Source of the DNA: an uncultured virus (IMG/VR IMGVR_UViG_3300028888_000090)
Taxonomy: Duplodnaviria > Heunggongvirae > Uroviricota > Caudoviricetes > Crassvirales
Strand: one strand, 5' to 3'
Length of the DNA: 64,000 nt
IMG/VR virus record: IMGVR_UViG_3300028888_000090
Positions 2,114 to 62,214 of this stretch are shown piece after piece. The notes beneath the pieces are model-generated. The model had not been told where the DNA came from and searched no databases. It saw nothing but the letters and a program-made list of their open reading frames with translations. Made by a program: the position numbers and the translations under genes. Within the stretch, counting starts at the first letter, position 1; every line of letters begins with the position of its first letter.

Positions 2114-2149
2114 TTCTACGGGGGAGGTAGAATTATTCTTCCCCCGTAG
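2114..2149. repeat. inverted pair of the TTCTACRGGGG motif (hairpin, possibly also a terminator)
   Basis: CTACGGGGGA (2116-2125) and TCCCCCGTAG (2140-2149). Confidence 0.85.
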
Positions 2150-2169
2150 CAAAGATATTGATTATTTTG

Positions 2170-2177
2170 TATATTTG
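2170..2177 (+). promoter_or_regulatory. Bacteroidota-type -7 promoter element (TAnnTTTG)
   Basis: TATATTTG 19 nt upstream of ATG 2197; no clear -33 element. Confidence 0.5.
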
Positions 2178-2196
2178 CCGTCTAAATTATAATGAT

Positions 2197-2358
2197 ATGA
2201 GTAAATATTATATTGACGGTAGTTGTACAAATGTTACAGATTATGATGTTCTGATTGAATCAGAATATTATAATCGTGATTATGATTATTCGGTTTTTGA
2301 AGAACCGATTGACAATGAAATTAAACTTCAAACAGAATCTGATATTCTGTTTGAATAA
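2197..2358 (+). CDS. small acidic hypothetical protein
   Basis: Within ORF 2158..2358; ATG at 2197. Confidence 0.55.
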   Translation: MSKYYIDGSCTNVTDYDVLIESEYYNRDYDYSVFEEPIDNEIKLQTESDILFE

Positions 2359-2388
2359 CTTTTTATTTAACAATTAAATTTAATTATT

Positions 2389-2772
2389 ATGAAAAGAACA
2401 GAAGCGTCATTGATGAAGATGACAAAGAAAGAGTTAGTGGAGTTAATTCTCCAAGAACAAGTTGAAGATTCTTTGCTTGGGCAAAAGACTAAGCAAGAGC
2501 TTATTGACATTATTCTTCGTAAAGACGATGTTGAAATTCGTCTGAAAGAAACTATTAAGAGTAAAGATGAAGAAATCGATACTCTTAATACTAGACTTGT
2601 CGGCTGTGAAGCTGACATTAACGGTCTTGAACGTATGCGTCAAGATAATCTCAAGTCTATTGAAGAGCTTAAACAAGCTATTAATAGAAAAAGAGTTACT
2701 ATTCGTAGATGGCAAATTGCTTTTAGCATTCTTGCCATTATTTCTATTATTGTTATTGCAGTTATTGCATAA
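2389..2772 (+). CDS. coiled-coil protein with C-terminal membrane anchor
   Basis: Heptad-like charged region, then WQIAFSILAIISIIVIAVIA. Confidence 0.7.
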   Translation: MKRTEASLMKMTKKELVELILQEQVEDSLLGQKTKQELIDIILRKDDVEIRLKETIKSKDEEIDTLNTRLVGCEADINGLERMRQDNLKSIEELKQAINRKRVTIRRWQIAFSILAIISIIVIAVIA

Positions 2773-2787
2773 CATATTCTATTACAT

Positions 2788-2836
2788 AGAGCGTATAGTA
2801 TAGGTGTTTAATTATACCTACATTATACGCTCTTAT
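2788..2836 (+). terminator. hairpin, probable terminator
   Basis: AGAGCGTATAGT..TAGGT pairs with ACCTA..ATTATACGCTCT. Confidence 0.6.
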
Positions 2837-2838
2837 TA

Positions 2839-2928
2839 TGCCCAAGAGTATGCTAAATCCTTTGTCTATTAAGTGATTTTTGAAAAATCATATAACTATA
2901 TGGATAAAGGATTAAACAGCTAAAATCG
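2839..2928. promoter_or_regulatory. tripartite fixed-spacing element, copy 1
   Basis: TGCCC 2839, TATAACTAT 2891, AAATCG 2923. Confidence 0.65.
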
Positions 2929-2949
2929 AAAATTAAAAATTATAAGAAA

Positions 2950-3258: not shown

Positions 3259-3331
3259 GGTCCTATAGCTCAACGGTTAGAGCGTCTGACTCATAATCAG
3301 AGGGTTCTAGGTTCAAATCCTAGTAGGACCA
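3259..3331 (+). tRNA. tRNA with CAT anticodon (probably Ile2/lysidine type, otherwise elongator Met)
   Basis: Acceptor GGTCCTA/TAGGACC, D arm GCTC/GAGC, anticodon arm TCTGA-CTCATAA-TCAGA, T arm CTAGG-TTCAAAT-CCTAG, discriminator A, no encoded CCA. Confidence 0.95.
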
Positions 3332-3450
3332 CTAATAATAGAAGTGAGATTCCTAATGGTTGTACAGCCGATAATTGTATAAGTGCTTTCATAAATATCG
3401 TATTTAATCTTACTTCTATTTGTTTTGTAAATAATTAAAATCATTATATT

Positions 3451-3866: not shown

Positions 3867-4328
3867 ATGGCTACTACAACATTTTCTGGCTTTAGTATTA
3901 GGCCAGTCAAAAAAGTTAGAGCTAAAGTTAGCTCTACACCGATTGTAAAACAGGCTCTTTATTGTAAGCCTGTTTATATTGAAAATACTCTAGTTGCACA
4001 TATTAATACTAAAGGCTTGGATGGTTATGAAAAAGTAACCATCCTCCCCTTTAGCAAAGAATCTTTCGATTTGAAAGGTAAAACTCATATCTTTGCTAGA
4101 GATAAAAACAAAGAAGGTAAATATGTACATATTATTAGAAGTAAGGATACTTCTGAAATGTATCCTGGTGATGAAGAACGATATACTCCTATATGTGAAA
4201 ATTCTATATATAAAGGGTATATAGTTAAACATAATAATGATTTAGTTTTTAATGTTACTGAATACATCAGTACAATAAGAGCTAATGATCTTCTATTAAC
4301 AAAGAATAATATTGAAAATGAACATTAG
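3867..4328 (+). CDS. hypothetical protein
   Basis: ATG ORF tightly packed between neighbours. Confidence 0.75.
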   Translation: MATTTFSGFSIRPVKKVRAKVSSTPIVKQALYCKPVYIENTLVAHINTKGLDGYEKVTILPFSKESFDLKGKTHIFARDKNKEGKYVHIIRSKDTSEMYPGDEERYTPICENSIYKGYIVKHNNDLVFNVTEYISTIRANDLLLTKNNIENEH

Positions 4329-5784
4329 TATAACTTCTCAAAGTAACGGTAAAGACCCAGCTTCTACGCTGGGCTTTACTGATGATCAAAGTAATGCTTA
4401 TAATAGTCTTATAGAATTTATTAATAAACCTTATAATGATAATGATTGTAAGCGTGCACTTACTGGTCCTGCTGGTACTGGTAAGACATATCTTGTTAAA
4501 GCTCTTATTAAAAACTGTAACTTAAGTTACAGTCAGATAGGGCTTGCTGCTCCTACTCATAAAGCTTGTCGTGTTCTACAAGAATCAATTGGTATTAATA
4601 ATGTTAAAACAAACACTTTGCAATCAGATTTAGGTCTTAGACTTAATTTTGATGTTGAGAAGTTTGATATTAATAATCCTCCTTTTGATCCTAAAGGTAG
4701 AATTAAACTTGGTGACTATAAAGTTTATATTGTTGATGAAGCTTCTATGATTAATAGAGGTTTATGTTTATTTCTTGAAAAAACTTGTAGAACTAATAAA
4801 TGTAAACTTATATATATTGGTGATAGTGCTCAGCTTGCCCCTGTAGGAGAGAAATATTCTCCTGCTTTTAGAGCTATTAAATGTAATGCTCTTGAACAGA
4901 TTGTACGACAAGAAGATGATAATCCTATAAGAGAGCTTCTTGATTTATTAAGATTTGATATTCAACATAAGACTTTTACTTTTCTTAATCATATTGCTCA
5001 AAACAAACAATGTTTTGATGAATTTTGTACAAAAGGATATAAGGTTTGCACTAGTACAGAATTCAATGACATAATGATAACTAATTTTAGTGATGAAGCA
5101 ATTACTAAAAATGTTGATTTTGTAAAAGTCATTGGATATACTAATATGGTTGTAAGTAGTTGGAACAAATTTATCAGAAATACTACTATTGAAGATTCTG
5201 ATAAATCTGTTATCACAAAGAATGACCTCATCATTAGTTATACAACTATCGTTAATCAATTTAATGAAATTGTTATAGCTAATTCTGAGGAATATATTCT
5301 TCAAGACGTGGTAAATTATGTGCATCCTACTTATGAACTGAAGGGATTTCTTGTAAGATTTATTGCCATTCATGGAGGTAAAGTTACAAGTCCTTTATTT
5401 GTTCTTGACCATAGTGATTCTTTTACGATTGCTAAATATTGTCAAATATCAAATTCTTTGGTTTCTGCTGCTAAAAGTAGTAGTGTTAAACTCCGTGCTC
5501 AAAAATGGCGCGAATATTATACTTTTAGAGAGAGTTGTCTACTACTTACTAATATTGCCAATCATCAAGGTAAAATAGTTTATCCTAGAGACCTTGATTA
5601 TGGTTTTGCGTTAACTGCTCATAAGTCACAAGGAAGTACGTTTGATACAACTTTAGTTGATGTAAATGATATTGTTTATAATAAATATGGTATTCCATAT
5701 ACTGATGCTGAAGAAATTAATCGTAGACTTTATGTGGCTTGTTCACGTGCTAAAAACAAACTTTATTTAAGATTTGGTAAATGA
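4318..5784 (+). CDS. SF1B helicase (Dda/RecD2-like)
   Basis: Walker A GPAGTGKT, AAPTHKA, Walker B VDEASM, IGDSAQLAPV, TAHKSQGSTF, LYVACSRAK. Confidence 0.92.
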   Translation: MNISITSQSNGKDPASTLGFTDDQSNAYNSLIEFINKPYNDNDCKRALTGPAGTGKTYLVKALIKNCNLSYSQIGLAAPTHKACRVLQESIGINNVKTNTLQSDLGLRLNFDVEKFDINNPPFDPKGRIKLGDYKVYIVDEASMINRGLCLFLEKTCRTNKCKLIYIGDSAQLAPVGEKYSPAFRAIKCNALEQIVRQEDDNPIRELLDLLRFDIQHKTFTFLNHIAQNKQCFDEFCTKGYKVCTSTEFNDIMITNFSDEAITKNVDFVKVIGYTNMVVSSWNKFIRNTTIEDSDKSVITKNDLIISYTTIVNQFNEIVIANSEEYILQDVVNYVHPTYELKGFLVRFIAIHGGKVTSPLFVLDHSDSFTIAKYCQISNSLVSAAKSSSVKLRAQKWREYYTFRESCLLLTNIANHQGKIVYPRDLDYGFALTAHKSQGSTFDTTLVDVNDIVYNKYGIPYTDAEEINRRLYVACSRAKNKLYLRFGK

Positions 5785-6562: not shown

Positions 6563-7114
6563 ATGACTATATGTGATGATTGTGCTTTAAGACTTTACAA
6601 CACTAAGTCTTATAATCTGCAAGGTATTGGTAATCCCTATAAAGGTAATGTTATTGTTGTACCTAATGTAGATTATAAAGCTTATAAAGGTAAAAGTATG
6701 GATTTTTCTACTCAAGTAGAAATAATTGAAGATGTACTTCACCTTTCTACGGGGGTGGAAGAGTCCAACTTTTATGTTGTTCCTCTTATTAGATGTAATG
6801 AACAAATATCTTGTGAAGTAGATGATGCTACTTATAATAAATGTTTGCAATATTTTGCACATGATGTTCGTAATTATAATTTTAAGAATATTCTTCTTTT
6901 AGGTAATGCTGCCAGAAGGTTTCTTAATATTAACATTCATGAATATCTTGATACTATTATTGTAAGCAAAAATCAAAGAAGATATTTTGTTAATTACTCA
7001 CCACTTGTTAAAAATATTGATGAAACATTGTTTAACACTTTTAGAGATAATCTTATAAAGTGGCATAATAGTGTTAATACTAATTTTTATAATTATAACA
7101 TTAAAATATTATAG
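6563..7114 (+). CDS. uracil-DNA glycosylase-like protein (family 4-like, degenerate motifs)
   Basis: N-terminal CDDCALR, GIGNP, LIRC, later Cys, ILLLGNAA: the layout of Fe-S UDG family 4; canonical GEAPG and HPA motifs not evident. Confidence 0.65.
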   Translation: MTICDDCALRLYNTKSYNLQGIGNPYKGNVIVVPNVDYKAYKGKSMDFSTQVEIIEDVLHLSTGVEESNFYVVPLIRCNEQISCEVDDATYNKCLQYFAHDVRNYNFKNILLLGNAARRFLNINIHEYLDTIIVSKNQRRYFVNYSPLVKNIDETLFNTFRDNLIKWHNSVNTNFYNYNIKIL

Positions 7115-7116
7115 CG

Positions 7117-7614
7117 ATGAGCGAAATAAAAGAAAAATGGAAAACAATTCGTGGACTTCCTAAATATGAAGTTAGTAGTTTAGGTAGTATAAGAATAAAA
7201 GATACTGATAAGCATATAACTCAATTTGTTCGTTTTGGAAAAAACGTTGTTGCTCTTAGTAATAAAAATGGAAAGTATAATCAATATTATGTTGATAATT
7301 TAGTAGCTTATAATTTTTTACCAATTCCTTATAGTATTAGCGAACCTAAAGTTTATCATAAAAATAAAAATTATTTAGATGATAGACTTGAAAATTTGCA
7401 TTTTATGAAAAATGTTAAAACTAATAGTGTTCTAGTAAACATTTATTTATTTAAAAATAATAGATGTTATTTAGTTAGTACCATGTCTTATAGAAGAGCT
7501 AAATCCTATCTTAATTGTAAAGAAGGTGAATTATTGCACGCCCTTGCTCATACTAGTATTATTAAAAATGATGGTAAAGAATACAAAGTTGAATATAGTT
7601 TTAATAAACTTTAA
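7117..7614 (+). CDS. NUMOD4/HNH homing endonuclease-like protein (probably degenerate)
   Basis: EKWKTIRGLPKYEVSSLGSIR (NUMOD4); VDNLVAYNF..VYHKNKNYLDDRLENL. Confidence 0.75.
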   Translation: MSEIKEKWKTIRGLPKYEVSSLGSIRIKDTDKHITQFVRFGKNVVALSNKNGKYNQYYVDNLVAYNFLPIPYSISEPKVYHKNKNYLDDRLENLHFMKNVKTNSVLVNIYLFKNNRCYLVSTMSYRRAKSYLNCKEGELLHALAHTSIIKNDGKEYKVEYSFNKL

Positions 7615-8267: not shown

Positions 8268-8495
8268 ATGATTGATGAAAAATATATTGTAACTACTACA
8301 ACAACATATACAATAAAATATAGACAACATAGTCTTAGAGGAAAGAGAGAATTTATTAGAGATATAAAAGGTATTTCTATTCTATTAGGTATTCTTAAAC
8401 CAATTCTTGAAGATCCTAATATTTGTGATATTGTTGTAGAAGAAAAAATTATTAATACTCTTGATGAAAAAATGCTACAAAAAGAAATATTATGA
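8268..8495 (+). CDS. hypothetical protein, paralog of 7805..8032
   Basis: Shares TYTIKYR..LRGK and CDIVVE. Confidence 0.7.
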   Translation: MIDEKYIVTTTTTYTIKYRQHSLRGKREFIRDIKGISILLGILKPILEDPNICDIVVEEKIINTLDEKMLQKEIL

Positions 8496-9136
8496 AAGAT
8501 TTTAAAATTAAAGTGATAAAACATAGAAAACCAAGTGTTTTATATGTTAATCCAAGTTTAGAAGATTTGGATGGTGAAATTTGGTATCCTTTAACTCATT
8601 TTGAAAATCTTTATCTTATAAGCAATTATTCTAGAATTAAAAGACTTTCAAGAGTTAAAACAAGTAAAATGGATTCTTTTAGTAAAAGAACCTTTATTGT
8701 AAGACCAAAATTAAATAGAGGCTATCTTCAAGTTGCTTTATCTAAATTTGGAGAATCACCAAAACTTTATTATCTTCATAGACTTGTTGCTGAAACTTTT
8801 ATAGATAATCCTAATAATTATCAATATGTAAATCATAAAGATGAAAATAAATTAAACAATTCTATTGATAATCTTGAATGGTGTACAAAATCTTATAATA
8901 ATTCATATAATGGAAGAGCTATAAAAGCGGCTGCATATAGAAAAATTGATTTATATGTTTATAAATATGACGGTAAAACCAATAGTTTTAAATTTTATAA
9001 GTATTTTGATAAAATATCTGATTGTAAGCTGTTAAGTATTGGATATTCTACTGTTATGAAGTATTTAGATACAAATAAGCCTTATGTTGCTTTAACTAGA
9101 GATATGTATAAATTTTATAGTAATGATAATAAGTGA
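8492..9136 (+). CDS. NUMOD4-HNH homing endonuclease
   Basis: GEIWYPL..YLISNYSRIK (NUMOD4); LHRLVAETF..VNHKDENKLNNSIDNLEWCT..YN (HNH). Confidence 0.9.
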   Translation: MKDFKIKVIKHRKPSVLYVNPSLEDLDGEIWYPLTHFENLYLISNYSRIKRLSRVKTSKMDSFSKRTFIVRPKLNRGYLQVALSKFGESPKLYYLHRLVAETFIDNPNNYQYVNHKDENKLNNSIDNLEWCTKSYNNSYNGRAIKAAAYRKIDLYVYKYDGKTNSFKFYKYFDKISDCKLLSIGYSTVMKYLDTNKPYVALTRDMYKFYSNDNK

Positions 9137-12205: not shown

Positions 12206-13627
12206 ATGGATGCTAGTAAATTATTTACCGATGCTATTAATCATTGGAGAGATGCTAAAGGAATAGGTACTGCACTTATTCCTCCACCTCTTAATGATAA
12301 AATTATGATATTAGGAGTTTTACAACGTATGTATAGTAAAACTTCTGATATTATTTCTCTTATTGTTGTAAATAATTTTACAGAAAGAAGAGAAATTATT
12401 GAATTTTTAACTTCCCAAGAAGATGAGGAAAACAATGCTGAATTTAAAAAACTTATTGATTCTAAGAAAATTAAGATTTTTAGTTCTAATTTTATAGAAA
12501 ATGATAAGTTTAATATGAGAGTTAATGTAGCCATTGTGTATCATTGTGAAGAAATTGGTAACAATGTTTATCGTTTGCTTTCTACTTCTAAATTCCGTCT
12601 TGTTGTTTTAAATCGTCTTAAACTTAGCAATAATGATATTGCTAGATTGTACGCTGTGTGTCCTCTCCTAAGTGATTTCAAACAAAATGAAGTAGATAGT
12701 CTTCGCACTTCTACCCCCGTAGAAGAGATGAGAATAGGTATTGATGTACCTAAAGATACTGATGATTATAAACTTCTACAATATTATGATGAGTTTATTG
12801 CAACTTCTCTTAATATATTTGGAAGTTTTGATAATATTCAGTTAGCTAGAGTTGGTTATGCGAAAGGTAATATATCTGCTACTCAATTTTGTTATAATTT
12901 GGCAACAGAAAACGGTTGGAGTCCTAATCTTGATATGAATATTGAATTAAATGTTCAAATCGATGAATTATATAATCCAGCTAATATTAGAGAACGTGCT
13001 TCTAAAACTTATGAAATTATTCGTAATAGAGGAAGAATGTTAGCTAATTATGACGCTAAATTAGATGAAATCCTTAAAATTGTAAGTGAAAATCTTGATA
13101 AGCATATTCTTATTATCAATAAATATGGTGAATTTGCTGCAAAAGTTACTGATTATCTCAATAATATGCTTCAAAAAGAAGTTTGTGGTAATTATCATGA
13201 TAAAGTTGATCCTATACCTGCTTCAGATGTTAATGGTAATCCTATTTATGTTAAATCTGGAAAAAGTAAAGGTGAACGTAAGATGATTGCTTCTAAAGCT
13301 CAAAAAACTTACAATGAAGAACGTTTTAATCTTGGTATTATTAATGTTTTATCTGCAAGTAATACTCCTGACAAAGAATTAAACATTCCTGTTGATATTA
13401 TTATTATTACTTCTCCACAATGCGAAGATATAGAATCTTATATCTATAGATTATCTAATGTAAGATATACAACAAATGTCATAAAATTATACACTCTATA
13501 TATTAAAGATAGTGTTGAAGAAAAGAAACTTGATGCTAAACAAATTTCTGAAACGCATATTTTAGTAGATGGTGTGGAAAAAAATGAAAAAATTATCGAA
13601 AATTTTGATTTTGTTGTTGTTGATTAG
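12206..13627 (+). CDS. SF2 helicase-like protein, ATPase motifs degenerate
   Basis: Size, position and helicase-C-like layout (HILIINKY..CGNYH..ERFNLGIINVL..KELNIPVDIIII..YTLYIKDSVEE); no GKT or DExH. Confidence 0.6.
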   Translation: MDASKLFTDAINHWRDAKGIGTALIPPPLNDKIMILGVLQRMYSKTSDIISLIVVNNFTERREIIEFLTSQEDEENNAEFKKLIDSKKIKIFSSNFIENDKFNMRVNVAIVYHCEEIGNNVYRLLSTSKFRLVVLNRLKLSNNDIARLYAVCPLLSDFKQNEVDSLRTSTPVEEMRIGIDVPKDTDDYKLLQYYDEFIATSLNIFGSFDNIQLARVGYAKGNISATQFCYNLATENGWSPNLDMNIELNVQIDELYNPANIRERASKTYEIIRNRGRMLANYDAKLDEILKIVSENLDKHILIINKYGEFAAKVTDYLNNMLQKEVCGNYHDKVDPIPASDVNGNPIYVKSGKSKGERKMIASKAQKTYNEERFNLGIINVLSASNTPDKELNIPVDIIIITSPQCEDIESYIYRLSNVRYTTNVIKLYTLYIKDSVEEKKLDAKQISETHILVDGVEKNEKIIENFDFVVVD

Positions 13628-16604: not shown

Positions 16605-17066
16605 ATGTCAAAACCTAAGAAACCTAGTAAGTTTAGTCTTTATCCGTTATATAGGGCTTGGTCTGCTATTAAACAAAGATGTTACAACAAAAACAACAAA
16701 GATTATAAACATTATGGTGCTAAAGGTATAACTATTTGTGACGAATGGAAACATTCATTTAAAACTTTTGAATCTTGGTCTATCGAAAACGGTTATAAAC
16801 AAGGTCTTTCTATAGATAGAATTGATTCTACAAAAAGTTATACTCCTGATAATTGTAGATGGATTCCTTGTAAAGAACAACCTAAAAATAGACAAACTAA
16901 TATTTATGTTAGATATAATGATAAAGTTATGACTATAGGAGAATTTAGTAAAACTATAAAATATTCTTATAATACTATAGTAAAACACCTATATCGACAT
17001 AATAATTTAGATAAATATAATGCTGTTATTGTTCCTTATAAAGAAGCTATAAAAGAACTTAATTAA
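16605..17066 (+). CDS. free-standing HNH-type endonuclease
   Basis: YRAWSAIKQRCYN..YGAKGITICDEW..LSIDRIDS..YTPDNCRW..EQPKNR. Confidence 0.85.
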   Translation: MSKPKKPSKFSLYPLYRAWSAIKQRCYNKNNKDYKHYGAKGITICDEWKHSFKTFESWSIENGYKQGLSIDRIDSTKSYTPDNCRWIPCKEQPKNRQTNIYVRYNDKVMTIGEFSKTIKYSYNTIVKHLYRHNNLDKYNAVIVPYKEAIKELN

Positions 17067-18822: not shown

Positions 18823-19320
18823 ATGATTGATTTAAGTTGTTTTAAAGATTGTTTTTTAGAAACAAGTGTTTTTGGTTTAGAATATGCTAAAAATAAAATC
18901 AAAGAAATAGGTTTTAACAATTGGTTTGAAATACAACTTAAAAACTTTCTTGATTGTAGTAAAACTTCTTCTGATGGACGTCGTATGGTTCAAACTAATC
19001 TTCGACAATACAAATCTGAAATTACTATTACTATAAATATGATAGAATCGTATGCTGAAAATAAAGAGTATTATTATGAAAAACTTGTGTCACAACATAA
19101 TTCTAATCTAGAATTTGAAGCAATTAATAGTCTAGCTTATGATGTTAATAGTTTTAATAAAAAGAAAACTGCAACAAAAAGAATTAAAAAAGAACCTATT
19201 CTTTTTGATAATAAACCTAAGAAAGAAACTGCTGCAGAACGTAAACTTAAAGCACATATTGCTAAAATTAATTCATTAAACATTACAATAAAACCTGTAA
19301 GAAATGACAACACTGTATAA
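18823..19320 (+). CDS. hypothetical protein
   Basis: ATG ORF in operon. Confidence 0.7.
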   Translation: MIDLSCFKDCFLETSVFGLEYAKNKIKEIGFNNWFEIQLKNFLDCSKTSSDGRRMVQTNLRQYKSEITITINMIESYAENKEYYYEKLVSQHNSNLEFEAINSLAYDVNSFNKKKTATKRIKKEPILFDNKPKKETAAERKLKAHIAKINSLNITIKPVRNDNTV

Positions 19321-22598: not shown

Positions 22599-22600
22599 TT

Positions 22601-22930: not shown

Positions 22931-22935
22931 TTATT

Positions 22936-23115: not shown

Positions 23116-23130
23116 CTTAACTTTTAAATT

Positions 23131-25584: not shown

Positions 25585-25590
25585 AATAAA

Positions 25591-25791: not shown

Positions 25792-25793
25792 CA

Positions 25794-25906: not shown

Positions 25907-25946
25907 ATGTTATTACTCCTATTATTGCTAAAAAATTATAAATAAT

Positions 25947-41742: not shown

Positions 41743-41772
41743 ATCATTAACATTTAAAATTAAACAATTAAT

Positions 41773-47700: not shown

Positions 47701-49155
47701 ATTCTTTCTTTCAAGAGCAGTTTTAGCTCTAGCTAAACCACTACCAGCACCTTGGAAAACAATACCACCAGCAACACCCCAAAAAGCACTTTCCCAAAGT
47801 TCAGGATTATTCATATATTGTCTAAGACGATTACTAAAAGTAGTATTAGCTTCCATAGAAAGCATAGATTTGCCAACTTCCATACCTTCTTGTTGAGCGA
47901 TATAGTTAACAGCTTCTTCAACACCTTCACTAGCTTGAGCTAATCCTACAGTTCTACCTGCATAAAAAATGTCTCCAATTTTATCAGCAGCTTTTGTACC
48001 AAAACTTTGTTTAGCTACAAGTTCTTCAAGTTCTTGAAGTGTACTATATTTACCAGCAAAACGTCTTGCATTCTTGTCAAGACGTCTAGCAGCAGCACTA
48101 ACTTTACTGTTTCTAAATCCATGAAAAGCTACATTGCGAAGAGCATAAAGTTCAATAATATCAAATACAGTATTTGCATAATCAGCTTTAAAAGTTAAAT
48201 CAGAAGATTGTCTAGCAACAGCTTTGGCTACTTCGTCTTTATTTGAAGTATCTACACCTCTAACTGTATTTTGATTTCTATTTAAAAAGTTGTTATATTC
48301 TTCATCACTCATAGTGTTTAAACTATCAAGAACATCAACATACATATCATTATATACTTGACGAGCTTCTTGATAATTCTCCATAGTTCTACTTAATGCA
48401 GCAGTAGTAGCATTTTTAGCAAAAAGTTTTCCTGTTTCATAAGCTTTTGAAGAAATACCAACACTATGACCTGCTTTATGTGTTCTATCTAATCTTTCAG
48501 CAGTACGTAACCATTTAGCACCAGCTTTAGTTCCTTTAAGAGCAGCTTTACCTGCCATACTTAAAAGCTTTGTACCACCAGCTGCAGGAATTAAAAGACT
48601 CAAAGAAGTAGCAATACTCGGAATGTTTTGCATCCACCAACCAAAATCCGTACTGCTACCAAAACCAGTACCTGGTCTAGAATAAATAGGAGCTACTTCA
48701 TTATTGAATTTATCTTCCCATTCTTCAAGTTTAGCAGAAACAGGATTGCTATAATCGTGATCAGAAACACCAACAGCTTGACCTATAGCATCAAGTAAAT
48801 CAACACCACCTTTTACTACATCAAGTGTTGTATCTACTATAGTTTGACCTATAGCATTACGTAATTTAGCCCAATTAGATTGTACTTCTGCAAGTTGAAA
48901 ATCTAAACTTCCGTTAGCTGCATCTCTAGGATTCCAATGAAGACCTGCTTTTTCATATTTTTTAATATCTTCATAATTAACCCTGTAACCGTTTAGTAAA
49001 TCTTTTTTAACAACATCTACTACAGCATTTTTATCAGCTTCTAGGTCTATAATATCCAAAGTCCTAGGTCCTTTATTTTTCTTGGACCTAGGATTATAAT
49101 CTGGATTAGCAATAGTTATTGTACCGTTATTTTTAATAAACTCATTAAAATCCAT
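41773..49155 (-). CDS. large polyvalent virion (ejected) protein with zincin HExxH motif and C-terminal ART-PolyVal-like domain, 2460 aa
   Basis: Hydrophobic N-terminal helices; LIHEQLH (43072-43086) with downstream EEFLVE; QVRTKAFKDWFGDW..VVDENGEPLVVYHG..GVYFS..VFLNIRNP..GYDGI..EYVVFNSNQIKSA. Confidence 0.8.
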   Translation of the reverse strand: MDFNEFIKNNGTITIANPDYNPRSKKNKGPRTLDIIDLEADKNAVVDVVKKDLLNGYRVNYEDIKKYEKAGLHWNPRDAANGSLDFQLAEVQSNWAKLRNAIGQTIVDTTLDVVKGGVDLLDAIGQAVGVSDHDYSNPVSAKLEEWEDKFNNEVAPIYSRPGTGFGSSTDFGWWMQNIPSIATSLSLLIPAAGGTKLLSMAGKAALKGTKAGAKWLRTAERLDRTHKAGHSVGISSKAYETGKLFAKNATTAALSRTMENYQEARQVYNDMYVDVLDSLNTMSDEEYNNFLNRNQNTVRGVDTSNKDEVAKAVARQSSDLTFKADYANTVFDIIELYALRNVAFHGFRNSKVSAAARRLDKNARRFAGKYSTLQELEELVAKQSFGTKAADKIGDIFYAGRTVGLAQASEGVEEAVNYIAQQEGMEVGKSMLSMEANTTFSNRLRQYMNNPELWESAFWGVAGGIVFQGAGSGLARAKTALERKNEKKKNKPNEKTGEDVNASTKWKELWELPDVKRVKASIENRLALENNYQANVKQVLDNNEISAEEKEIYLQALREQRRTELALNAMDSGTVDMLKGYLEDDNVKQALIDKGIVTKEEADAIQREDVEAIQKVQDRYDDNVRRLNAISKNIYAKNGTHIPTEYLQIIARNNIAAQLTVENLQRQLASWSEDATSLQHDLEENDKIDANINYKEAIRLRWLSEKLGQLEADKKAILDNKKLANSISGKEKLRELDANIAVVKKQVAELNPENTIENLLFAIQTSLSYEKFNGEYLETGRRKEYVDFTNALLSKDTKYFEKLDNKLVGIEERHFGARDVLSQNMTRALAKNETNISNISKELGEAYATLASLQYMIDAERTNIKLNDEEVEQEVGYIHNYMNEVRKQKIADSKKTLEHLADTYGSENIRNLVTQRYNGKPLDYTGVNMTEDDKNLLNEVLDTLNLSEKLNSDLAVEIDSILAIHDAVKAAQDADKDSRTIKNSSTIQNADLGTQNQNRDNVSTEAQQTEIGQKEAQIEANRVQTNTQPTQSQNNNPSGLNVANIGDEVTVDTDGNYTFMATDNPDQFKVTFNSTTNNVKHFNNFNLFTQEEGVDLTNDNYIIAKKPIIDRQGNVIEKGALALATTDNAAQAEANAVDDEQQRQQQIASTGEVVNPQLSPEQVAGVQEEKPAEDTSKAAEIPYDANDVKSLANADMISEVSAAIKDKKDIDWDDFRKRLNDKYQPDGNTSQTITEDIESVIRAGKKLAERKGVQSVDAVTDVIAKSSRLRENTSNEEAKKEFSDSVQKLLDVFNSEVGIDIVNGKRYINIEALCRYCDKVLNDKLSAGLLLNSLLEHVKDNKNYVVTDSNPDRVQERLRKDISSFDTSEQQLGIDYLNVLRQVETSRDENARKAFYEVIDNIQPGDKIDITREDRGLIFTVNGVKIGSLPYPKVSNDGTLYQDNDNWNTDIKIVQGGNIQSKLQDLFIRWATDTTNSDVKELNDIILQYLDPNYNGDKSELVKQFKENKEVKKAVASKLTVDTPDYEKLLKGIAKVWQYTRANGGNFDGSILEARQQDIQQWFKERVAPSYVFIQKLKENPNLEVEVNKITEGDRIETKQDKKLPVSKAIGSNHKGKVKLGICLDNNAITLAGGGINGSTRYEWSQAKQGRTWIAIPARDGNHAFVHAFRQKVNSNSISKTAKDIKNAIYSEIRRICSDDKMFQDDKAKTLQTLLRKVLPVYTQGTNKPNSTASFFDSNSEEETNITIGDNPRNSRGFTFSYRTSKNDKNVYIDVWNDGIARKSGQILDNNQLAEEIINAIEHCCTFNLSFAAINSDLGHAERQYLTKRGTNGEYIVSIPNQGDFTFASYNDFVLDNDLVLATTEPTPDGRSNFNRISDNYRANQQLYVKISNDTTSPVEESVEESTTASTVANPRETEILDVLNSKRIKNKAEKLADLLFGKKVRKSLSFGKKKYKLFPKNIIFVDRNIEDNALVNTSDRPLLHEDTQILIPAKTVVLGKEWLEMATNDNIEERKQAAKKLIHEQLHILLSGENSKYVEQIREVFDEFAEKNTNEELNKYLYKWDEARYYTDGKLNQEGLEEFLVETLTSNELANALNNIETTSTEDKTKKESLFQKIMKLLAKIIGIDIKQGSLYEKEFKLLRDVLSSDSQLEINFEENTEETTEKTNEEFLDFLQSDAADVLNDDDMDIFGSRIREETSTNYTPEMQSIKDKAIADSTFMKAPNGNPTNLTERQWLQVRTKAFKDWFGDWENDAANASKVVDENGEPLVVYHGGQANIDVFNPRTEELPADVIKTNLHRKNRVGVYFSKDIQIGENYTRLYKENGKIYNVFLNIRNPFNVKFSTTVKNRLIRLITFGKIRNLDAGDVYTNDLDNLLAGYDGINHSNGMEYVVFNSNQIKSATDNVGTFSKTDNNIKHSRIRENTVPSISAYISSFPIEEQPKIIDKIENGEISISCK

Positions 49156-52295: not shown

Positions 52296-54344
52296 TTATG
52301 CTTTATTTAAATTACTTTCACCAAAGGCATCTTCTAATTGTTTAGCCCAAACATCATATTGATTACCTGTACCTTTGTATTTTTTGTAACGCTTATAATA
52401 AATTCTAGCAGTATCTATATCACCGTTTTTAATAGTATAGTTTAAATCATTTTCAGGAGTCCAGCCATATCTACTCATTTTTAATTCGTTTTGCATTTTA
52501 GCATTTGTTGCAAAAGCATTAGCAAAAGCATTACCTCCTGTATTAATGGCATTAGCAAAACCTTGAGCATTAGCAGATCTCATATTAGCTAAAGTAGATT
52601 GTCTTTGAAGAAGAGCATCAGCTCTAGCCTGAGCAGAACCTGTAATTCTTTCATTAGCAATATCGTTATTATATTGAAGCATACTGAGATATGCTTGACC
52701 ATATGCTTGATTTGCTTGAGTATCACGATTGGCGTTTTCATTAGCAACTTGAGTAATACGAGCCATGTTTTCTTGAAGAATACCTTGACGAAGTTTGTCA
52801 GCGTTTGATTCAATTTGAGCAATTCTGTCATTATAGTCAACCTCAGCTCTTGCACTTCTATCTTGAGTGGCTGCAGAACTTAAAGTACCACGATTAATTC
52901 TACCAAGATTTCTCTGAAGAGTTCGTTCCGCTGCACTTCTTTCAGCACCTGTATTAACAATAGGTGCTTGTAATGCAGCCATAGCGTGTGCAGCACGATA
53001 ATCTCTACGATTGAGTAGACTCATATCAATACCTCCTAATCTGCTATAAGCGTCAGCAAGAATATTACCTGCTTGACCATAAGCACCAGCTAATTGTCTT
53101 GCAGCTATAGTATTACCTATTGCACCAATGCCTGCTGCAAGTAAATTAGAACCGGCACTAATACCAGCACCAAGAAGATTTCCTTGAACAGTTGTCATAC
53201 TGCTTCTTCCGCTTCTTGTAGTAGGTCTTGGAGTATTTGAAAATATATCAGTATTTAATACCGGTCTAGTGATAGTAGGAGTCATAGGCATACTTCTTGT
53301 TGTAGGAATGTTATAATCACCTACAGCACCATTCCAATTTGTTGTAGTAGTAAACCAATCCATATTGTTATAAGGAGGTCTGCTGAAATTAAAACCATAA
53401 GCAGCCTTATGTCTACCACCACATTTAAGTTGTCTAGTTCCTGCAACAACTCCTGTTGCAACAGGAGCAAGAAAATCAAGACTTAAATCAGGAGTAATAG
53501 GAATTGCAACAGCAGCTCCAGATGTAGCCATCCTTCTTACAGGGGTATTAGAACTACGCTTACCATCATCACTAATACCATAAATATCTTTAATTCTTTC
53601 TTGAATAGCAAAAGCTTCAAGAGGATCTTGTCCAGCAAGAACTGCTTGTGCAGGATTGTATCCCTTAAGAGAATGTTTACTAATGAATTTTGCATCATTA
53701 GGAGTAACAAGCATTAATTCCCCTTGATTAGAATTCTGATTTCCTTCTCCTTCAATAGTAGAAGAATTAGCAAATCTAATACCTACACCAGTTTTATTTC
53801 TACCACCTTGTGCTTTATGATAATGTTCATGGTCATTACCAACAATTTCATACAAGTCATAACCTTCAGGAGTAGTACCGATAGGAATAACAGAGCCACC
53901 ATCAGTAACTGTAAAAGGAAGATTGCCATTGCTCCCCTGTAGAAGAGATGTACTATTTCTCAACTTCCTTCTAACACTACCACCTCTTTTAACTTGAGTT
54001 CTTGCCATTTCTCTCATTTGATTAGCATTTTGTTGTCCTGCAAGAATTTGAAGATTCATTTGAATATCTTTTTGTAAATCTCTATTACGTTCATTTTGTT
54101 CTTTAGTAAAAGTAAGAGATTTTTCTTGCAAAGCATTATTATTTTCATTTTGTCTTGTTAAAGCATCTGCGTTTGTTTGAGCAGAAGCAGTAACAGCGTC
54201 TGCTTGTTGTTTAGCAGCACTAGCAGTACTAGCAGCATTAATGGCAGCAGCGGCTAAAGTCGCTCCTGCCATAATAGCTCCGTCAATACCAAACTGAGCT
54301 TTTAATCTACTATTTCTAAGTCTATTTCGTTTTGCCATAATCAC
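52296..54344 (-). CDS. putative cargo/ejection protein with membrane-interacting helices (682 aa)
   Basis: Ala/Gly-rich hydrophobic segments (GATLAAAAINAA; LLGAGISAGSNLLAAGIGAIG), Gln/Asn-rich coiled coils, KxGG linkers; directly follows the muzzle-like gene. Confidence 0.65.
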   Translation of the reverse strand: MIMAKRNRLRNSRLKAQFGIDGAIMAGATLAAAAINAASTASAAKQQADAVTASAQTNADALTRQNENNNALQEKSLTFTKEQNERNRDLQKDIQMNLQILAGQQNANQMREMARTQVKRGGSVRRKLRNSTSLLQGSNGNLPFTVTDGGSVIPIGTTPEGYDLYEIVGNDHEHYHKAQGGRNKTGVGIRFANSSTIEGEGNQNSNQGELMLVTPNDAKFISKHSLKGYNPAQAVLAGQDPLEAFAIQERIKDIYGISDDGKRSSNTPVRRMATSGAAVAIPITPDLSLDFLAPVATGVVAGTRQLKCGGRHKAAYGFNFSRPPYNNMDWFTTTTNWNGAVGDYNIPTTRSMPMTPTITRPVLNTDIFSNTPRPTTRSGRSSMTTVQGNLLGAGISAGSNLLAAGIGAIGNTIAARQLAGAYGQAGNILADAYSRLGGIDMSLLNRRDYRAAHAMAALQAPIVNTGAERSAAERTLQRNLGRINRGTLSSAATQDRSARAEVDYNDRIAQIESNADKLRQGILQENMARITQVANENANRDTQANQAYGQAYLSMLQYNNDIANERITGSAQARADALLQRQSTLANMRSANAQGFANAINTGGNAFANAFATNAKMQNELKMSRYGWTPENDLNYTIKNGDIDTARIYYKRYKKYKGTGNQYDVWAKQLEDAFGESNLNKA

Positions 54345-58677: not shown

Positions 58678-59424
58678 TTATCTTCTAGGATCAAAAGTAC
58701 TATTATAAAAGAAATTCCTCCAACCATCATCATTAGCACTGAGTTCAATAGCAACTGAAGTTGCTGCTTTATTCTTTAGATTAGTCCATTGCATATATGG
58801 ATTAAGAACTGGATTTTGAGCACTTAAACTATAAACTTGATGCTTACTTCCTCTACTAAGATATTTAAAAAGAATATACCAAGAAAGAGCTTCTAAAAGT
58901 AAACCGTTATCAAAAATAAAAGGAACATCACATTCGTAATATTCGTCGTAATATGTTGCTACCTCAAAACTTTCTACAAGAATTTTATCAGTATCATAAT
59001 TTAATTCAATATTATTTCCAGCTATAACAAAATTCTTAGAACAAGGTTTAACAACATTTGCTACTTCTACAGTATTGACCCCGTTTTTATCTTTATCGTT
59101 AAAAACAGCAATTTCGGAACTAGGCTTAAAAGTATCTAATTCCGAACATTTGCAACCACTTTTAACATTTAATCCATTTATTTCACATCCATTAGAATCA
59201 AAAACTCTTATATCAGTAGAATTCAATGCACAAGGAAAATGAGCAATTCTATTATTTACTTGTAGAGTTCTTCTCTTCCTTTCCATAGGAAGACATTTCA
59301 TTTGAGATAGAGCGTCAATAACCCATGCAGCAGCACGAGGTATCCAATCACTTTCACTAATGTTAAAATCGTTATCAACTTTACCTATAAGTCTATCTAA
59401 CGACACTTGCCTTTTGAGTTTCAT
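58678..59424 (-). CDS. tail ring / tubular protein
   Basis: WVIDALSQM..VNNRIAHFPC, DVPFIFDN..LLEALSWYI; immediately upstream of the muzzle gene as in crAss-like phages. Confidence 0.6.
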   Translation of the reverse strand: MKLKRQVSLDRLIGKVDNDFNISESDWIPRAAAWVIDALSQMKCLPMERKRRTLQVNNRIAHFPCALNSTDIRVFDSNGCEINGLNVKSGCKCSELDTFKPSSEIAVFNDKDKNGVNTVEVANVVKPCSKNFVIAGNNIELNYDTDKILVESFEVATYYDEYYECDVPFIFDNGLLLEALSWYILFKYLSRGSKHQVYSLSAQNPVLNPYMQWTNLKNKAATSVAIELSANDDGWRNFFYNSTFDPRR

Positions 59425-60328
59425 TTCTTATAAATTTATTATAAAGTGTATCATCTGCTTCAAGACATAAATATAATTTTGTTCTTATATCTACATCTAT
59501 ATTGCATATTTCATTTTTATCTCCATTAGCTTCTCTAAAAAGATCTGCATTAGTCTTTCCTCTAATCTTGCTACTTCTATAATCTGATGTTGTAAATTTA
59601 AGATTTGCACCATCTTTAACTTTACTATCTAGTAAAGGAAATTCGTATACATATTCTACAGTTTGATAAACTCTTCCGTCTTCAGCTTTATATTCAATAC
59701 CATTAGCTTTACACCATTCAGCTTCTTCTTTATTATAAAGTTTTTTACCTTCTGCAAGAAGTTTTGCTTTTCTTTCTTTAGTAGCTTTAAAATCTATATG
59801 AGGTTTACGTTTAATAATATGACAACGATTAATACAAATCCAACCTGTCATACCAGCAAAAACATATCCGTAACCATCAAGAATAAGTTTCTTTTGAACT
59901 TCAGTATAATATAATTTAAGAAGATTGTTATATTCTTTAAGAGTTATATTAAGAAGTTTATTACAAAAGTCTATGGTTTTATTAGTATCAACTATATCTT
60001 TTTGTGTTTTAGCAAGATTATAAACATCAAAATTTCTACCAATTAGTTCATAATTACCATCACGATTCGCAAGAACACCTTTTGCAACTCTTAAGAAACT
60101 TCCATCTATATACTTATTATCTTTAAATTCTTGATACTTATTAAGATCTATAGGATATTCATTTCTATTTATTGTAAAATCTTTATCAATTGTTTCACGT
60201 AATTCATTTACTTTTTTATATAAACTTTCAAGAAGTCCAATAGCTTCTTCTTTCTTTTGTGTATAAGCATCTTTCATACTTGTATAATACACACGAAAAT
60301 TTGTAGGAGTTTCTTTTACACCAGTCAT
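59393..60328 (-). CDS. putative IHF/HU-like DNA-binding protein with N-terminal extension
   Basis: YYTEVQKKLILDGYGYVFAGMTGWICINR resembles the HU/IHF helix-G-strand-G pattern; crAss-like phages carry IHF-like genes at this position. Confidence 0.45.
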   Translation of the reverse strand: MTGVKETPTNFRVYYTSMKDAYTQKKEEAIGLLESLYKKVNELRETIDKDFTINRNEYPIDLNKYQEFKDNKYIDGSFLRVAKGVLANRDGNYELIGRNFDVYNLAKTQKDIVDTNKTIDFCNKLLNITLKEYNNLLKLYYTEVQKKLILDGYGYVFAGMTGWICINRCHIIKRKPHIDFKATKERKAKLLAEGKKLYNKEEAEWCKANGIEYKAEDGRVYQTVEYVYEFPLLDSKVKDGANLKFTTSDYRSSKIRGKTNADLFREANGDKNEICNIDVDIRTKLYLCLEADDTLYNKFIRNETQKASVVR

Positions 60329-60334
60329 ACCTTA

Positions 60335-61021
60335 TTAAATTACATCTGTATTAATTGAATGTTCATTTGTTTCTCTAAGATTTTGTAGAAAATCTCTTTT
60401 ATATATAATTTCTTTTATTTGACCAATCATATCTTCACTAAGAAGATACTCATTTTCATCCATCGTAACATCCCAACCGGTAGCAACACCATTTTCAACA
60501 TCAATAGGATTAGGATGTTCAAAAGCAGATTCAATTATAATTTTACTAAAATTAATAGGTTTACCACATTGCGGAAAAAGATAAATATAGCCATTGATAT
60601 AATCATATCTAGGCATACTTGAAAGACCTGGAACAGCAGAACTAAATCTAGCAGAAGTTTCCTTAATAAAAGGAATTTCCCTGTTATTCTTAAAACCAAC
60701 AGTAGAAACTCTATCAAAAGGAAGATTATTAACAAGTCTTACAGGTCTAGGAACAAGTTGTTTTGTTCTTTTAACTCTAATAATGTCATCAGTATCAACT
60801 CCTTCAGGATAAGTAATATCACCATCAAGAACATCAATAAGAGATACACGAAATCTTTGTGTAAGAACCTTATCTACATAAGAATGATTCTCATAACTTC
60901 TACGAATAACTTCATTACGAGTTTGAAGAATCAGAAGTTTAATATTTTCTCTAAGTGGGGCGCTATTAGGTTTGCCTACACTATGAGCTATTTCACTAAC
61001 TAAAGCAGCTATACTTGCCAT
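60335..61021 (-). CDS. tail ring protein
   Basis: RTKQLVPRPV, YDYINGYIYL, IESAFEHP, EYLLSEDMIGQIKEII; first gene of the virion operon. Confidence 0.6.
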   Translation of the reverse strand: MASIAALVSEIAHSVGKPNSAPLRENIKLLILQTRNEVIRRSYENHSYVDKVLTQRFRVSLIDVLDGDITYPEGVDTDDIIRVKRTKQLVPRPVRLVNNLPFDRVSTVGFKNNREIPFIKETSARFSSAVPGLSSMPRYDYINGYIYLFPQCGKPINFSKIIIESAFEHPNPIDVENGVATGWDVTMDENEYLLSEDMIGQIKEIIYKRDFLQNLRETNEHSINTDVI

Positions 61022-61050
61022 ACTATTAAGTTTACTATTGATTTGATAAA

Positions 61051-61130
61051 GCTCCCCTGTAGAAGCAAGGTGTGGATTTCGCTGACCAGCAGCACTATCA
61101 ATTAATTCATCATCTTTTCTACGGGGGAGT
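61051..61130. repeat. inverted pair of the TTCTACRGGGG motif in the leader of the virion operon
   Basis: GCTCCCCTGTAGAA 61051-61064 and TTCTACGGGGGAGT 61117-61130, 52-nt spacer. Confidence 0.9.
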
Positions 61131-61173
61131 TATATTACAACTAGATTACTATTACTACTTGATTTAGGATATG

Positions 61174-61204
61174 CAAATATACAATAATTATCCAATCCTG
61201 CAAT
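61174..61204 (-). promoter_or_regulatory. Bacteroidota-type promoter driving the tail/cargo/RNAP operon
   Basis: On the - strand ATTG-N19-TATATTTG. Confidence 0.65.
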
Positions 61205-61264
61205 ATTAAAAGCAATATTTAGAGTAAAAAATCGTAACTGCCTATAAATGAAAGAATTAGGTGC

Positions 61265-61420
61265 TATATATAATATAGTATATATAATTAACAAGGAGAT
61301 AAAATATAAATAATATAATATTCCTTAATATATAAAATATAAATAATAATATAAATATTATTATTTATAATAATATTTATATTATTATTTATATTTTAAT
61401 AATATTTATATACTATTATA
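61265..61420. other. extremely AT-rich, palindrome-rich intergenic tract (candidate unwinding element or origin)
   Basis: Almost pure A/T; 61325-61411 contains no G or C; AT palindromes such as ATAAATAATAATA..TATTATTATTTAT. Confidence 0.5.
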
Positions 61421-61795
61421 CTATATAAATATCTCCATCATTTTCATAGCAATATAACCTATAGTATATGCTGGTTCTTCTCCTTCATCTTTTACATTAT
61501 AAGCACCTAACATAGATTGCTTAATATGTTCAGCTTCGTGAACTATTGAATTAATATAATCTGCAATGCTTCTATGTGCATTAAAAAGCACTACACTAGT
61601 GTCACAATCGGCACTACTTGTAGTAACAGCTTTAGCACTACCTTTTTGCATATTATTTTTAATACTTCTAATCTGAAGTTTACTACAACCAATCTGCGCT
61701 AGATCTTTACTAATAATATGAAAAAGGTTATAGTCTACATTATAATAAACTATAACCTCCCAATAATCATCTATATTAATAGTTCTTCTAATCAT
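61421..61795 (-). CDS. small zincin-like (HExxH) protein
   Basis: NSIVHEAEH and downstream EEPAYTIGYI. Confidence 0.7.
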   Translation of the reverse strand: MIRRTINIDDYWEVIVYYNVDYNLFHIISKDLAQIGCSKLQIRSIKNNMQKGSAKAVTTSSADCDTSVVLFNAHRSIADYINSIVHEAEHIKQSMLGAYNVKDEGEEPAYTIGYIAMKMMEIFI

Positions 61796-62214
61796 AGAAA
61801 TTCATCCCAAGGAATGCCAACACCAAGCCATTTCATATCAGCAATCCAACGATTAAAAACAAGACCTTCACAACCATCCGGGTCATCAAGAGTTTCTTTA
61901 ATATATAGAGCCATGTGTTGATTAGTAGGAACACTGCCTCCAAGATAATCTGCTTTACACATATTAGCTACATAAGTAATATCTTCAAGTTGAGCATATT
62001 TAACTTTAATACTATAAGTATGTAAAACTTGTTCTACCTCCCCTTTAGAAAGGGATTTGATTGGTATCTCGTTCCCTTTATCATCAGTTTTATACATTTG
62101 TGATACAGCAAAATCACAACATTTTTTATTAAAGTGAGGACCATAATGAGATAGATAAATACTAAGATCTTCTGGCATCACTTCATAAGCAGTAAAATTT
62201 TCTCTATTATGCAT
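61792..62214 (-). CDS. conserved hypothetical phage protein
   Basis: YLSHYGPHFNKKCCDFAVSQM, YVANMCKADYLG, DDPDG..FNRWIADM; coupled to its neighbour. Confidence 0.75.
   Translation of the reverse strand: MHNRENFTAYEVMPEDLSIYLSHYGPHFNKKCCDFAVSQMYKTDDKGNEIPIKSLSKGEVEQVLHTYSIKVKYAQLEDITYVANMCKADYLGGSVPTNQHMALYIKETLDDPDGCEGLVFNRWIADMKWLGVGIPWDEFL

Follow-up and report, generated by a model that had tools for sequence, protein, structure and literature searches.

Several systems are known in which a short word is repeated throughout a genome. Chi (GCTGGTGG) and the FtsK-orienting polar sequences (KOPS, GGGNAGGG) are G-rich and oriented and are recognised by a translocating machine that follows one strand, and the uptake signal sequences (USS) of Pasteurellaceae and DNA uptake sequences (DUS) of Neisseriaceae are orientation-independent duplex sites for bacterial transformation. 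In T5, phiKMV-like and tf/LUZ24-like phages, short asymmetric motifs mark proven nicks; the study of phage tf reportedly found 14 of these, all on one strand. The nick-associated motif of the tf/LUZ24-like phages, TACTRTGMC, is treated in two papers (PMC3517423, PMC11780129), in the second of which it is enriched in 61 phages, with 88% of its copies at least partly coding, and LUZ24-like motifs are described as ‘not evenly spread’ and mostly, not only, on the coding strand (PMC11780129). Here we examined a 64,000-nt stretch of DNA from an uncultured virus of the Crassvirales (IMG/VR record IMGVR_UViG_3300028888_000090; ‘the window’ throughout), part of a crAss-like phage genome, for an asymmetric word of ~21 nt (CAYYTC-TTCTAC-RGGGG-WGST) whose core is the 13-mer TTCTACRGGGGWG. 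Like the nick motifs, this word is short, asymmetric, mostly coding, conserved within a clade and without a settled function, and it contains TAC followed by a purine. The nick motifs mark proven nicks, and they are uneven and mostly on the coding strand, whereas the word forms equal, regular series on each strand, with close opposite-strand pairs common.

The remaining systems compare less closely. Chi and KOPS are likewise oriented, G-rich and selected genome-wide, but they measure at most 8 nt, are host-read and are skewed with replication, whereas the word spans ~21 nt, is specific to a phage lineage and is balanced between the strands. USS and DUS share with it a genome-wide distribution, both orientations, preferred reading frames, inverted pairs at gene ends and dialects; in this lytic phage, however, the two orientations behave as mutually blind series. 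The word is apparently undescribed, the nick-associated motif of LUZ24-like phages being apparently its closest published class. No description was found among the papers listed for crAss nicks, promoters, motif strings, CTTCTGGAG (the word of crAss001, see below) or evenly spaced dispersed motifs, and none is given in the passages concerned with the phi14:2 RNA polymerase, the culturing of C. communis and the B. cellulosilyticus phage.

A dispersed word selected as DNA

TTCTACRGGGGWG occurs 11 times in the window without mismatch, compared to 0.00 expected from 100 dinucleotide-preserving shuffles, and 19 times at up to two mismatches, compared to a shuffle mean of 1.16 (largest 3). The first-pass annotation, made from the letters of the window, had listed 13 main copies and seven variants. 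All 13 lie where it placed them, within 1 nt at their ends, and the two inexact ones (12712-12724 on the minus strand, 35473-35485 on the plus strand) are one base off. Four variants proved credible (2139-2151, 19811-19823, 38418-38430 and 62038-62050, all on the minus strand; scores in Table 1). The other three, listed at 4043, 4835 and 53535, did not: those found at 4044-4056 and 4835-4849 scored below 12 bits, and 53535 was recovered neither at up to two mismatches nor by the matrix described next.

Alignment of 127 copies from the window and five relatives of ~90 kb in IMG/VR (G001 to G005) revealed information over ~21 positions and uninformative flanks. A covarying stem around the word, which a few copies had suggested, was dropped on the strength of this 127-copy logo. 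The corresponding position weight matrix identified 17 sites in the window and 19-30 per relative, with real sites scoring 17-39 bits and shuffled sequence 10.1 at best. The matrix was derived from the same copies that it scores and its core columns are therefore circular; exact-pattern counts and reversed-pattern controls are free of this circularity. By exact pattern, the relatives held 11, 29, 27, 21 and 19 copies at up to one mismatch, and the reversed pattern was absent from all five. As the annotation had surmised, the word accounts for much of the G-run content of the window: the 17 sites contain 17 of the 33 runs of at least four G, and all eight runs of at least five, counted over both strands.

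Copies within genes are spelled with codons that are otherwise rare, again as first claimed (GGG 2% of Gly, CCC 2% of Pro, ACG 3% of Thr and GAG 11% of Glu codons), and the peptides read across them (LSTGV, STPVE, FYRGG, ATPVE, TSPVE, LYGG, ASTGE and LLQG) were all correct. In codon-preserving shuffles (200 runs per genome, with amino-acid sequence and codon pool fixed and intergenic DNA unchanged) the coding copies were lost. The 17 sites of the window fell to a mean of 6.3 (maximum 8), close to the six untouched intergenic ones, and those of G002 and G004 fell from 30 to 9.9 and from 23 to 10.2, respectively. Synonymous positions within the word do not drift either; across nine groups of shared positions, core columns were 0.9-1.0 identical at all codon positions, compared to ~0.4-0.5 in the flanks. 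Among 114 strict copies, 71 (62%) fell in open reading frames (ORFs) and 43 (38%) were intergenic, compared to ~10% of the sequence being intergenic, and the frames used within genes were STGE (31), FYGG (12) and LRGS (4) in sense and SPVEE in 23/24 antisense copies, all of these counts resting on crude ORF calls. The remaining antisense frames hold TAG or a run of arginines.

The copy within the primase gene illustrates how the word is retained at the expense of the protein. YYYTAYRGGG was kept at this place in 87 of 90 aligned relatives (protein identity 47-100%), about half of which are near-identical human-gut sequences and not independent. The place is mostly read as PFYGG, and it is read as PLQGSW in ‘R. 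jaberico’ and PLRGNL in crAss002, through another codon phase. Given the loss on shuffling, the constancy of the core and this change of codon phase, the word is very probably not an artefact of protein or codon usage. It is a real DNA-level signal under strong selection, to which codon usage and even amino-acid sequence give way in essential genes (such as those of the primase, RNA polymerase and tail proteins).

The same data make it very improbable that the copies are by-products of protein or codon constraint or a selfish miniature element resembling repetitive extragenic palindromes (REP/REPIN) or miniature inverted-repeat transposable elements (MITEs). Some intergenic inverted pairs do have hairpin potential (Table 1), as such an element might, and hairpins are limited to the inverted pairs and a few intergenic copies. 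The flanks, however, carry no information beyond ~21 nt, 62% of the copies are intragenic without disrupting the genes, the coding copies vanish in codon-preserving shuffles, genomes with flanks only ~45% identical still share the same places, and PHROGs and Pfam scans of the window found no gene resembling a transposase or REP-associated tyrosine transposase (RAYT).

We further compared the occurrence of the word among named relatives, the closest of which are Intestiviridae: in ring protein 2 the window is 70% identical to the pig-gut phage cr271_1 and 46-52% identical to Carjivirus communis, crAss002 and ‘Rudgehvirus jaberico’. For ‘R. jaberico’ Bc11, native long reads have been obtained with a rapid Nanopore kit (PMC10028833). 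The word was carried by all five IMG/VR relatives and all four named Intestiviridae (controls 0-1), with 17-32 copies in each genome of ~90 kb. Some of its places persist throughout the family and others turn over. Grouping by position the 91 coding sites found in six genomes, namely the window and the five IMG/VR relatives, gave 47 groups, of which three are occupied in all six genomes, three in five, three in four, one in three and six in two; the other 31 are singletons, with scores of -10 to -40 bits at the equivalent places elsewhere. L161, the nearest long relative (70-79% nucleotide identity), retains three of the four sites that the window has in their shared stretch, and the fourth is substituted ~1.1 kb away on the same strand. 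Together with the shuffles and the synonymous constancy, this persistence supports the original proposal of a genome-wide system of cis-acting sites, selected at the level of DNA and not of protein.

Counts of the core YYYTAYRGGGG were 32 (crAss002), 26 (‘R. jaberico’), 17 (cr271_1) and 10 (C. communis), with 0-1 matches for reversed controls, and the top over-represented 9-mers of each genome were parts of the word. In crAss001, a member of the Steigviridae, the Intestiviridae core had two matches compared to four in the control, and a word of its own, CTTCTGGAG, occurred in 29 copies compared to 2.0 expected. Each lineage thus has its dialect: CTTCTACGGGGGAG in the window and cr271_1, CTCCTTTAYGGGGGAA in crAss002, CCATCCTCYACGGGGGGTC in C. 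communis, CTCCTYTACAGGGG-AKNTTACA in ‘R. jaberico’ and CTTCTGGAG in crAss001. All five share one layout, namely a pyrimidine tract, then Y-T-(A/G), then a G-rich flank that varies with lineage. By this comparison, the word of the window is the local dialect of an Intestiviridae-wide signal. No family member examined lacks this signal, three cultured or culturable phages among them; in crAss001 it is worded differently. It could serve as a sequence marker for lineage assignment, and any recoding or engineering of crAss-like genomes must respect it.

Three observations on individual lineages stand apart. In around 50 near-identical human-gut loci the primase place reads TTCTACGGGGCGGAT, in which the G-run is broken; this may be yet another dialect. 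G001 has many weakened or altered copies (TCTATRGGGGT, CTTTACGGGGGAG) and its sites are divided unequally, 14 on the plus strand and 7 on the minus strand; the dialect of this relative may be drifting. The crAss001 record also shows an excess of T/A runs, with T8 occurring 71 times compared to 5.5 expected.

Strand-specific spacing and one-strand reading

On either strand the copies form a separate, regularly spaced series, with one copy typically every 5-8 kb. The coefficient of variation (CV) of per-strand gaps was 0.22-0.65 in the window and five relatives, compared to 0.81-0.92 under random placement, and was significant (P < 0.05) in 10/12 strand sets. The four named Intestiviridae gave values of 0.29-0.70 (P < 0.01 in 6/8 sets), and crAss001, using its exact 9-mer alone, 0.61 (P = 0.08) and 0.46 (P < 0.001). 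Plus- and minus-strand sites numbered 8/9 in the window and 14/7, 17/13, 16/14, 13/10 and 8/11 in the relatives. With both strands combined the CV was 0.57-0.85, and shuffling the strand labels at fixed positions abolished the regularity in 10/10 genomes (P 0-0.02; pooled, 0/5000 shuffles reached the observed value). Adjacent sites on the same strand were at least 1350 nt apart, whereas those on opposite strands came as close as 17 nt; all 30 neighbour pairs within less than 300 nt were of opposite strands. As the series are even on each strand, same-strand neighbours exclude one another and opposite strands are blind to each other, the reader acts on one strand. The pattern favours priming, nicking, or a translocating helicase or nuclease.

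The functions first listed for the motif ranged from sites for a protein that organises, packages, translocates or replicates the genome to Chi-like or recombination sites. Its cis-acting nature stood up; the list was too wide, and the per-strand spacing argues against both an orientation-blind duplex-binding organiser and a packaging site. Orientation-blind duplex sites for a protein that organises, packages or marks the genome, comparable to USS/DUS or nucleoid-protein sites, would fit the two orientations, the restricted frames, the hairpin-folding inverted pairs at gene ends and the lineage dialects, all of which are USS/DUS traits. Such sites should nevertheless be regular irrespective of strand, which is the opposite of what the combined CV and the label shuffling gave, and close pairs would be wasteful for them, yet these are frequent and exclusively of opposite strands. 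We regard this explanation as quite improbable.

A one-strand reader could be a phage nickase that leaves localized single-strand interruptions at the words, either during replication or in packaged DNA; T5, phiKMV-like and tf/LUZ24-like phages have such interruptions. Nick-associated motifs are the sole published class of short, asymmetric, mostly intragenic words conserved across an otherwise diverged phage clade, the Intestiviridae core has TAC and then a purine just as TACTRTGMC does, and the window encodes a ligase and three HNH endonucleases. The one-strand bias of the nick motifs is not seen here, where both strands carry equal, evenly spaced series. Permanent nicks in both members of the close opposite-strand pairs, some only 17-46 nt apart, would also nearly sever an AT-rich duplex, and these pairs are not avoided; this objection concerns permanent nicks at all sites, and not transient or partial nicking. 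Overall, nicking appears rather unlikely.

Alternatively, the words could be a phage-private, Chi-like signal, read on one strand by a travelling helicase-nuclease or recombination machine, such that phage DNA is spared or repaired and wordless DNA, from the host or a competitor, degraded. Strand-specific and even coverage of both strands would suit a signal that a machine leaving a break in either direction has to meet quickly. The lineage-specific flanks fit a private self-mark, and the window has genes for an SF1 helicase (RecD/Dda-like) and a Gam-like/Gp157 protein. Known Chi sites, however, are shorter (5-8 nt) and are read by the RecBCD or AddAB of the host, and PHROGs and Pfam scans recognised no nuclease partner in the window. 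We consider this possibility unlikely.

The relationship to gene direction bears on a transcriptional role. Word orientation was unrelated to it, with 24/71 coding copies antisense and 16/43 intergenic copies opposing both neighbours, and this mixed orientation argues against an ordinary promoter or terminator. Promoter-like starts (a pyrimidine element, a TA melting step and a GGGGGAG start) for a phage RNA polymerase, giving primer RNAs or sense and antisense transcripts, would be a less ordinary version. The promoters of T7, T3, SP6 and K11 are similarly ~20 nt long, asymmetric, specific to a lineage and almost invariant in any one genome, and in them too a G-run comes after a TA step (TATA then GGGAGA in the T7 class). 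The intergenic share of copies (43/114) exceeds the ~10% of the genome that is intergenic, and several sense copies lie 19-57 nt 5' of start codons at equivalent genes across genomes, such as that of ring protein 2. Those promoters, however, are intergenic and point with the genes, whereas the word ignores gene orientation and is 62% intragenic, and gene expression offers no rationale for even spacing on each strand. PHROGs and Pfam scans found no single-subunit RNA polymerase in the window. In the passages on transcription of the phi14:2 study, the virion RNA polymerase of that crAss-like phage transcribes single-stranded and not double-stranded DNA in vitro, which suits a promoter-like start, but its early transcripts lack a common upstream motif and its middle promoters are sigma70-like and host-read, which speaks against one (10.1101/2020.03.07.982082). 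A promoter-like role is therefore judged improbable. A small share of probability is reserved for some further explanation beyond those considered here.

Priming as the preferred reading

The reading that we prefer, at a probability of roughly 38%, is that the word may mark fixed sites at which RNA-primed (discontinuous) DNA synthesis begins. It would be read on one strand by a phage-encoded replication machine, with the pyrimidine tract as template for a purine-rich primer (pppAGAAG...), the YT(A/G) step as the initiation trinucleotide of a DnaG-type primase and the lineage-variable, G-rich 3' flank as the part that is recognised. Even spacing on both strands would leave neither strand long unprimed when serving as lagging-strand template. 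Bacterial DnaG primases initiate at d(CTG), d(CTA) and d(TTA), and the sites of T7 gp4 are d(GTC)-based. Like the sites of these primases and the single-strand initiation (ssi) signals of plasmids, which are strand-specific and act on a single-stranded template, all five dialects have Y-T-(A/G) with a 3' purine, the trinucleotide after the pyrimidine tract being CTA, TTA or CTG.

The candidate reader is a putative DNA primase encoded within the window itself (Table 1). Clusters with look-alike features carry Toprim_2 and Zn_ribbon_DnaG (scores 0.97-0.98), which we take as a lead only, and the protein is strongly conserved, the best 120 of its 1611 homologues being at least 69% identical. It is less likely than not that a primase or primosome of ~20-nt specificity starts the strands of Crassvirales only at fixed addresses every 5-8 kb per strand and, through its private dialect, is blind to host and competitor DNA. 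If true, fixed-address priming would give the phages that are most abundant in the human gut a code for self-recognition. Whether through priming, nicking or self-marking of DNA, the word offers a handle on a step of crAss biology.

Several points weigh against priming. The primase sites described so far are abundant and short (3-5 nt), and 3-5 bases suffice for DnaG- and T7-type primases, whereas the word has ~21 informative positions and only 17-32 sites per genome, at fixed places every 5-8 kb on each strand; to our knowledge, a 21-nt primase requirement is unprecedented. The presence of Y-T-purine has little discriminating power, given that a YTR step arises by construction wherever TA or TG follows a pyrimidine tract. 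The conserved 5' block, at ~6-10 nt depending on dialect, is too variable in length to define a set primer length. A single bidirectional origin would place only half of the sites on the lagging-strand template, yet the series extend along the whole genome on both strands. The primase assignment consists of one PHROG family and feature look-alikes, and searches of Pfam, NCBIfam and PDB sequences, including an alignment-based profile search, returned zero matches. Finally, a lost place tends to have a same-strand substitute close by, but the comparison is only modestly significant: a same-strand site lay within 1 kb of 41% of 99 empty equivalent places, compared to 28% at random places (P ~0.02, with pairs non-independent).

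Table 1. Copies of the word in the window and the candidate reader. Matches are to the 13-mer core and scores are from the position weight matrix; occupancy refers to the six genomes compared unless other genomes are named.
Feature	Position	Strand	Context	Match and score	Relatives and folding
Word copy	2107-2129	+	Intergenic, 5 nt past the stop of ORF 1764-2108	Exact, 34.1 bits	Inverted pair with 2136-2158; single-strand hairpin -14.2 kcal/mol, z -5.2
Weaker word copy, TGCTACGGGGGAA	2136-2158	-	Intergenic	2 mismatches, 20.5 bits	Inverted pair with 2107-2129
Word copy	6738-6760	+	Sense in weakly UDG-like ORF 6563-7114 (LHLSTGVEE)	Exact, 26.3 bits	Place also occupied in G001, G004, G005 and L161
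Word copy	12709-12731	-	Antisense in ORF 12206-13627 (TSTPVEEMR)	1 mismatch, 28.0 bits	Place filled in 6/6
Word copy	17889-17911	+	Sense in primase gene (NHPFYRGGD)	Exact, 30.3 bits	Place filled in 6/6
Weak word copy, CTATACAGGGGAG	19808-19830	-	Antisense in ligase ORF 19304-20500	18.2 bits	Relatives carry a same-strand substitute ~1 kb off
Word copy	25802-25824	+	Intergenic	Exact, 34.1 bits	Convergent pair with 25875-25897; fold including ~30-nt arms -19.4 kcal/mol, z -6.1
Word copy	25875-25897	-	Intergenic	Exact, 34.7 bits	Convergent pair with 25802-25824
Word copy	28827-28849	+	Antisense near the 3' end of the 4515-aa RNA polymerase ORF, ~640 nt inside the gene	Exact, 29.0 bits	In G003, G004 and G005, same-strand site ~650 nt from the equivalent, 1-13 nt past the RNA polymerase stop and opposing the gene
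Word copy	35466-35488	+	Antisense in RNA polymerase ORF (ITSPVEGID)	1 mismatch, 32.1 bits	Place filled in 5/6
Word copy, CTTTACGGGGGAG	38415-38437	-	Sense in RNA polymerase ORF (FNPLYGGAD)	2 mismatches, 23.2 bits	Place filled in 5/6
Word copy	43449-43471	+	Antisense in 2460-aa ORF 41773-49155	Exact, 34.1 bits	Place filled in 6/6
Word copy	45697-45719	-	Sense in 2460-aa ORF (QIASTGEVV)	Exact, 29.7 bits	Window only
Word copy	53929-53951	-	Sense in ORF 52296-54338 (TSLLQGSNG)	Exact, 33.3 bits	Place filled in 4/6
Word copy	61049-61071	-	Intergenic, sense, 31 nt 5' of the ATG of ring protein 2 gene 60335-61021	Exact, 30.7 bits	Arrangement upstream of ring protein 2 gene repeated in G001; divergent pair with 61110-61132, fold -15.6 kcal/mol, z -3.8
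Word copy	61110-61132	+	Intergenic, antisense to both neighbours	Exact, 31.8 bits	Divergent pair with 61049-61071
Weak word copy, TTCTAAAGGGGAG	62035-62057	-	Sense in ORF 61792-62214	1 mismatch, 18.3 bits	Strong sites 32-38 nt from the equivalent in G004 and G005
Candidate reader, putative DNA primase	17068-18240	+		PHROG 12622 ‘DNA primase’, E 1e-58

Genome setting and minor observations

The window is AT-rich (26-32% G+C). Genes lie on the plus strand up to ~27.7 kb and on the minus strand thereafter, the minus-strand block including the ORFs of 4515 and 2460 aa. The two blocks converge at ~27.7-28.2 kb (ORF 28042-28356 on the plus strand, 28195-41742 on the minus strand), where the GC skew flips sign. 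Pfam matches comprised CrAss_Ring_1, CrAss_Ring_2 and crAss001_48, and PHROGs matches a Dda-like helicase, DNA polymerase, primase, ligase, Gam-like protein, dUTPase and three HNH endonucleases. The replication genes recovered by PHROGs or Pfam thus include a family B DNA polymerase, an SF1 helicase (RecD/Dda-like), a ligase and a Gam-like/Gp157 protein. An IHF-like protein at 59393, which had been put forward as a candidate binding protein for the motif, had no match as such in family searches; ORF 58678-59424 matched CrAss_Ring_1. Homologues of the neighbouring gene 60335-61021 (minus strand) carry an ‘integration host factor/histone-like protein’ label in older records. As this gene matches CrAss_Ring_2 (tail ring protein 2, E 1e-47), the label is poor evidence for a DNA-binding protein here.

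The HNH endonuclease genes (7117-7614, 8492-9136 and 16605-17066, plus strand) sit within the replication module; two have NUMOD4 motifs and one lies directly 5' of the primase gene. A tRNA-Met (anticodon CAT) was detected at 3259-3332 on the plus strand amid small ORFs of the early side (Rfam 77.4 bits, and ARAGORN), and an Rfam scan of the window at gathering thresholds returned this tRNA only. According to Pfam, genes for Thy1 (ThyX-like), a DUF1599 ‘nucleotide modification associated domain 1’ protein and dUTPase cluster at 21627-23475 and 26020-26484 (plus strand), a neighbourhood that may hint at modified nucleotide metabolism.

The window DNA or parts of it occurred in 24 sequencing runs, from sources labelled as sheep, bovine and other gut metagenomes. 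In contigs of four runs, none of the listed differences fell within the six word sites of 25500-45499, although with 40 of 1926 listed these are too few to settle anything. Contigs of a sheep-gut metatranscriptome run were identical to parts of 25500-45499, with eight full-length pieces listed at zero differences; as these are contigs, they do not show transcript ends or strand, and DNA carry-over is possible. In three runs, contigs link 25584/25585 to 25796 with 6-7 other letters inserted, which indicates close relatives without the 211-nt intergenic piece 25585-25795. The joint at 25796 lies 13 nt before the word copy at 25809.

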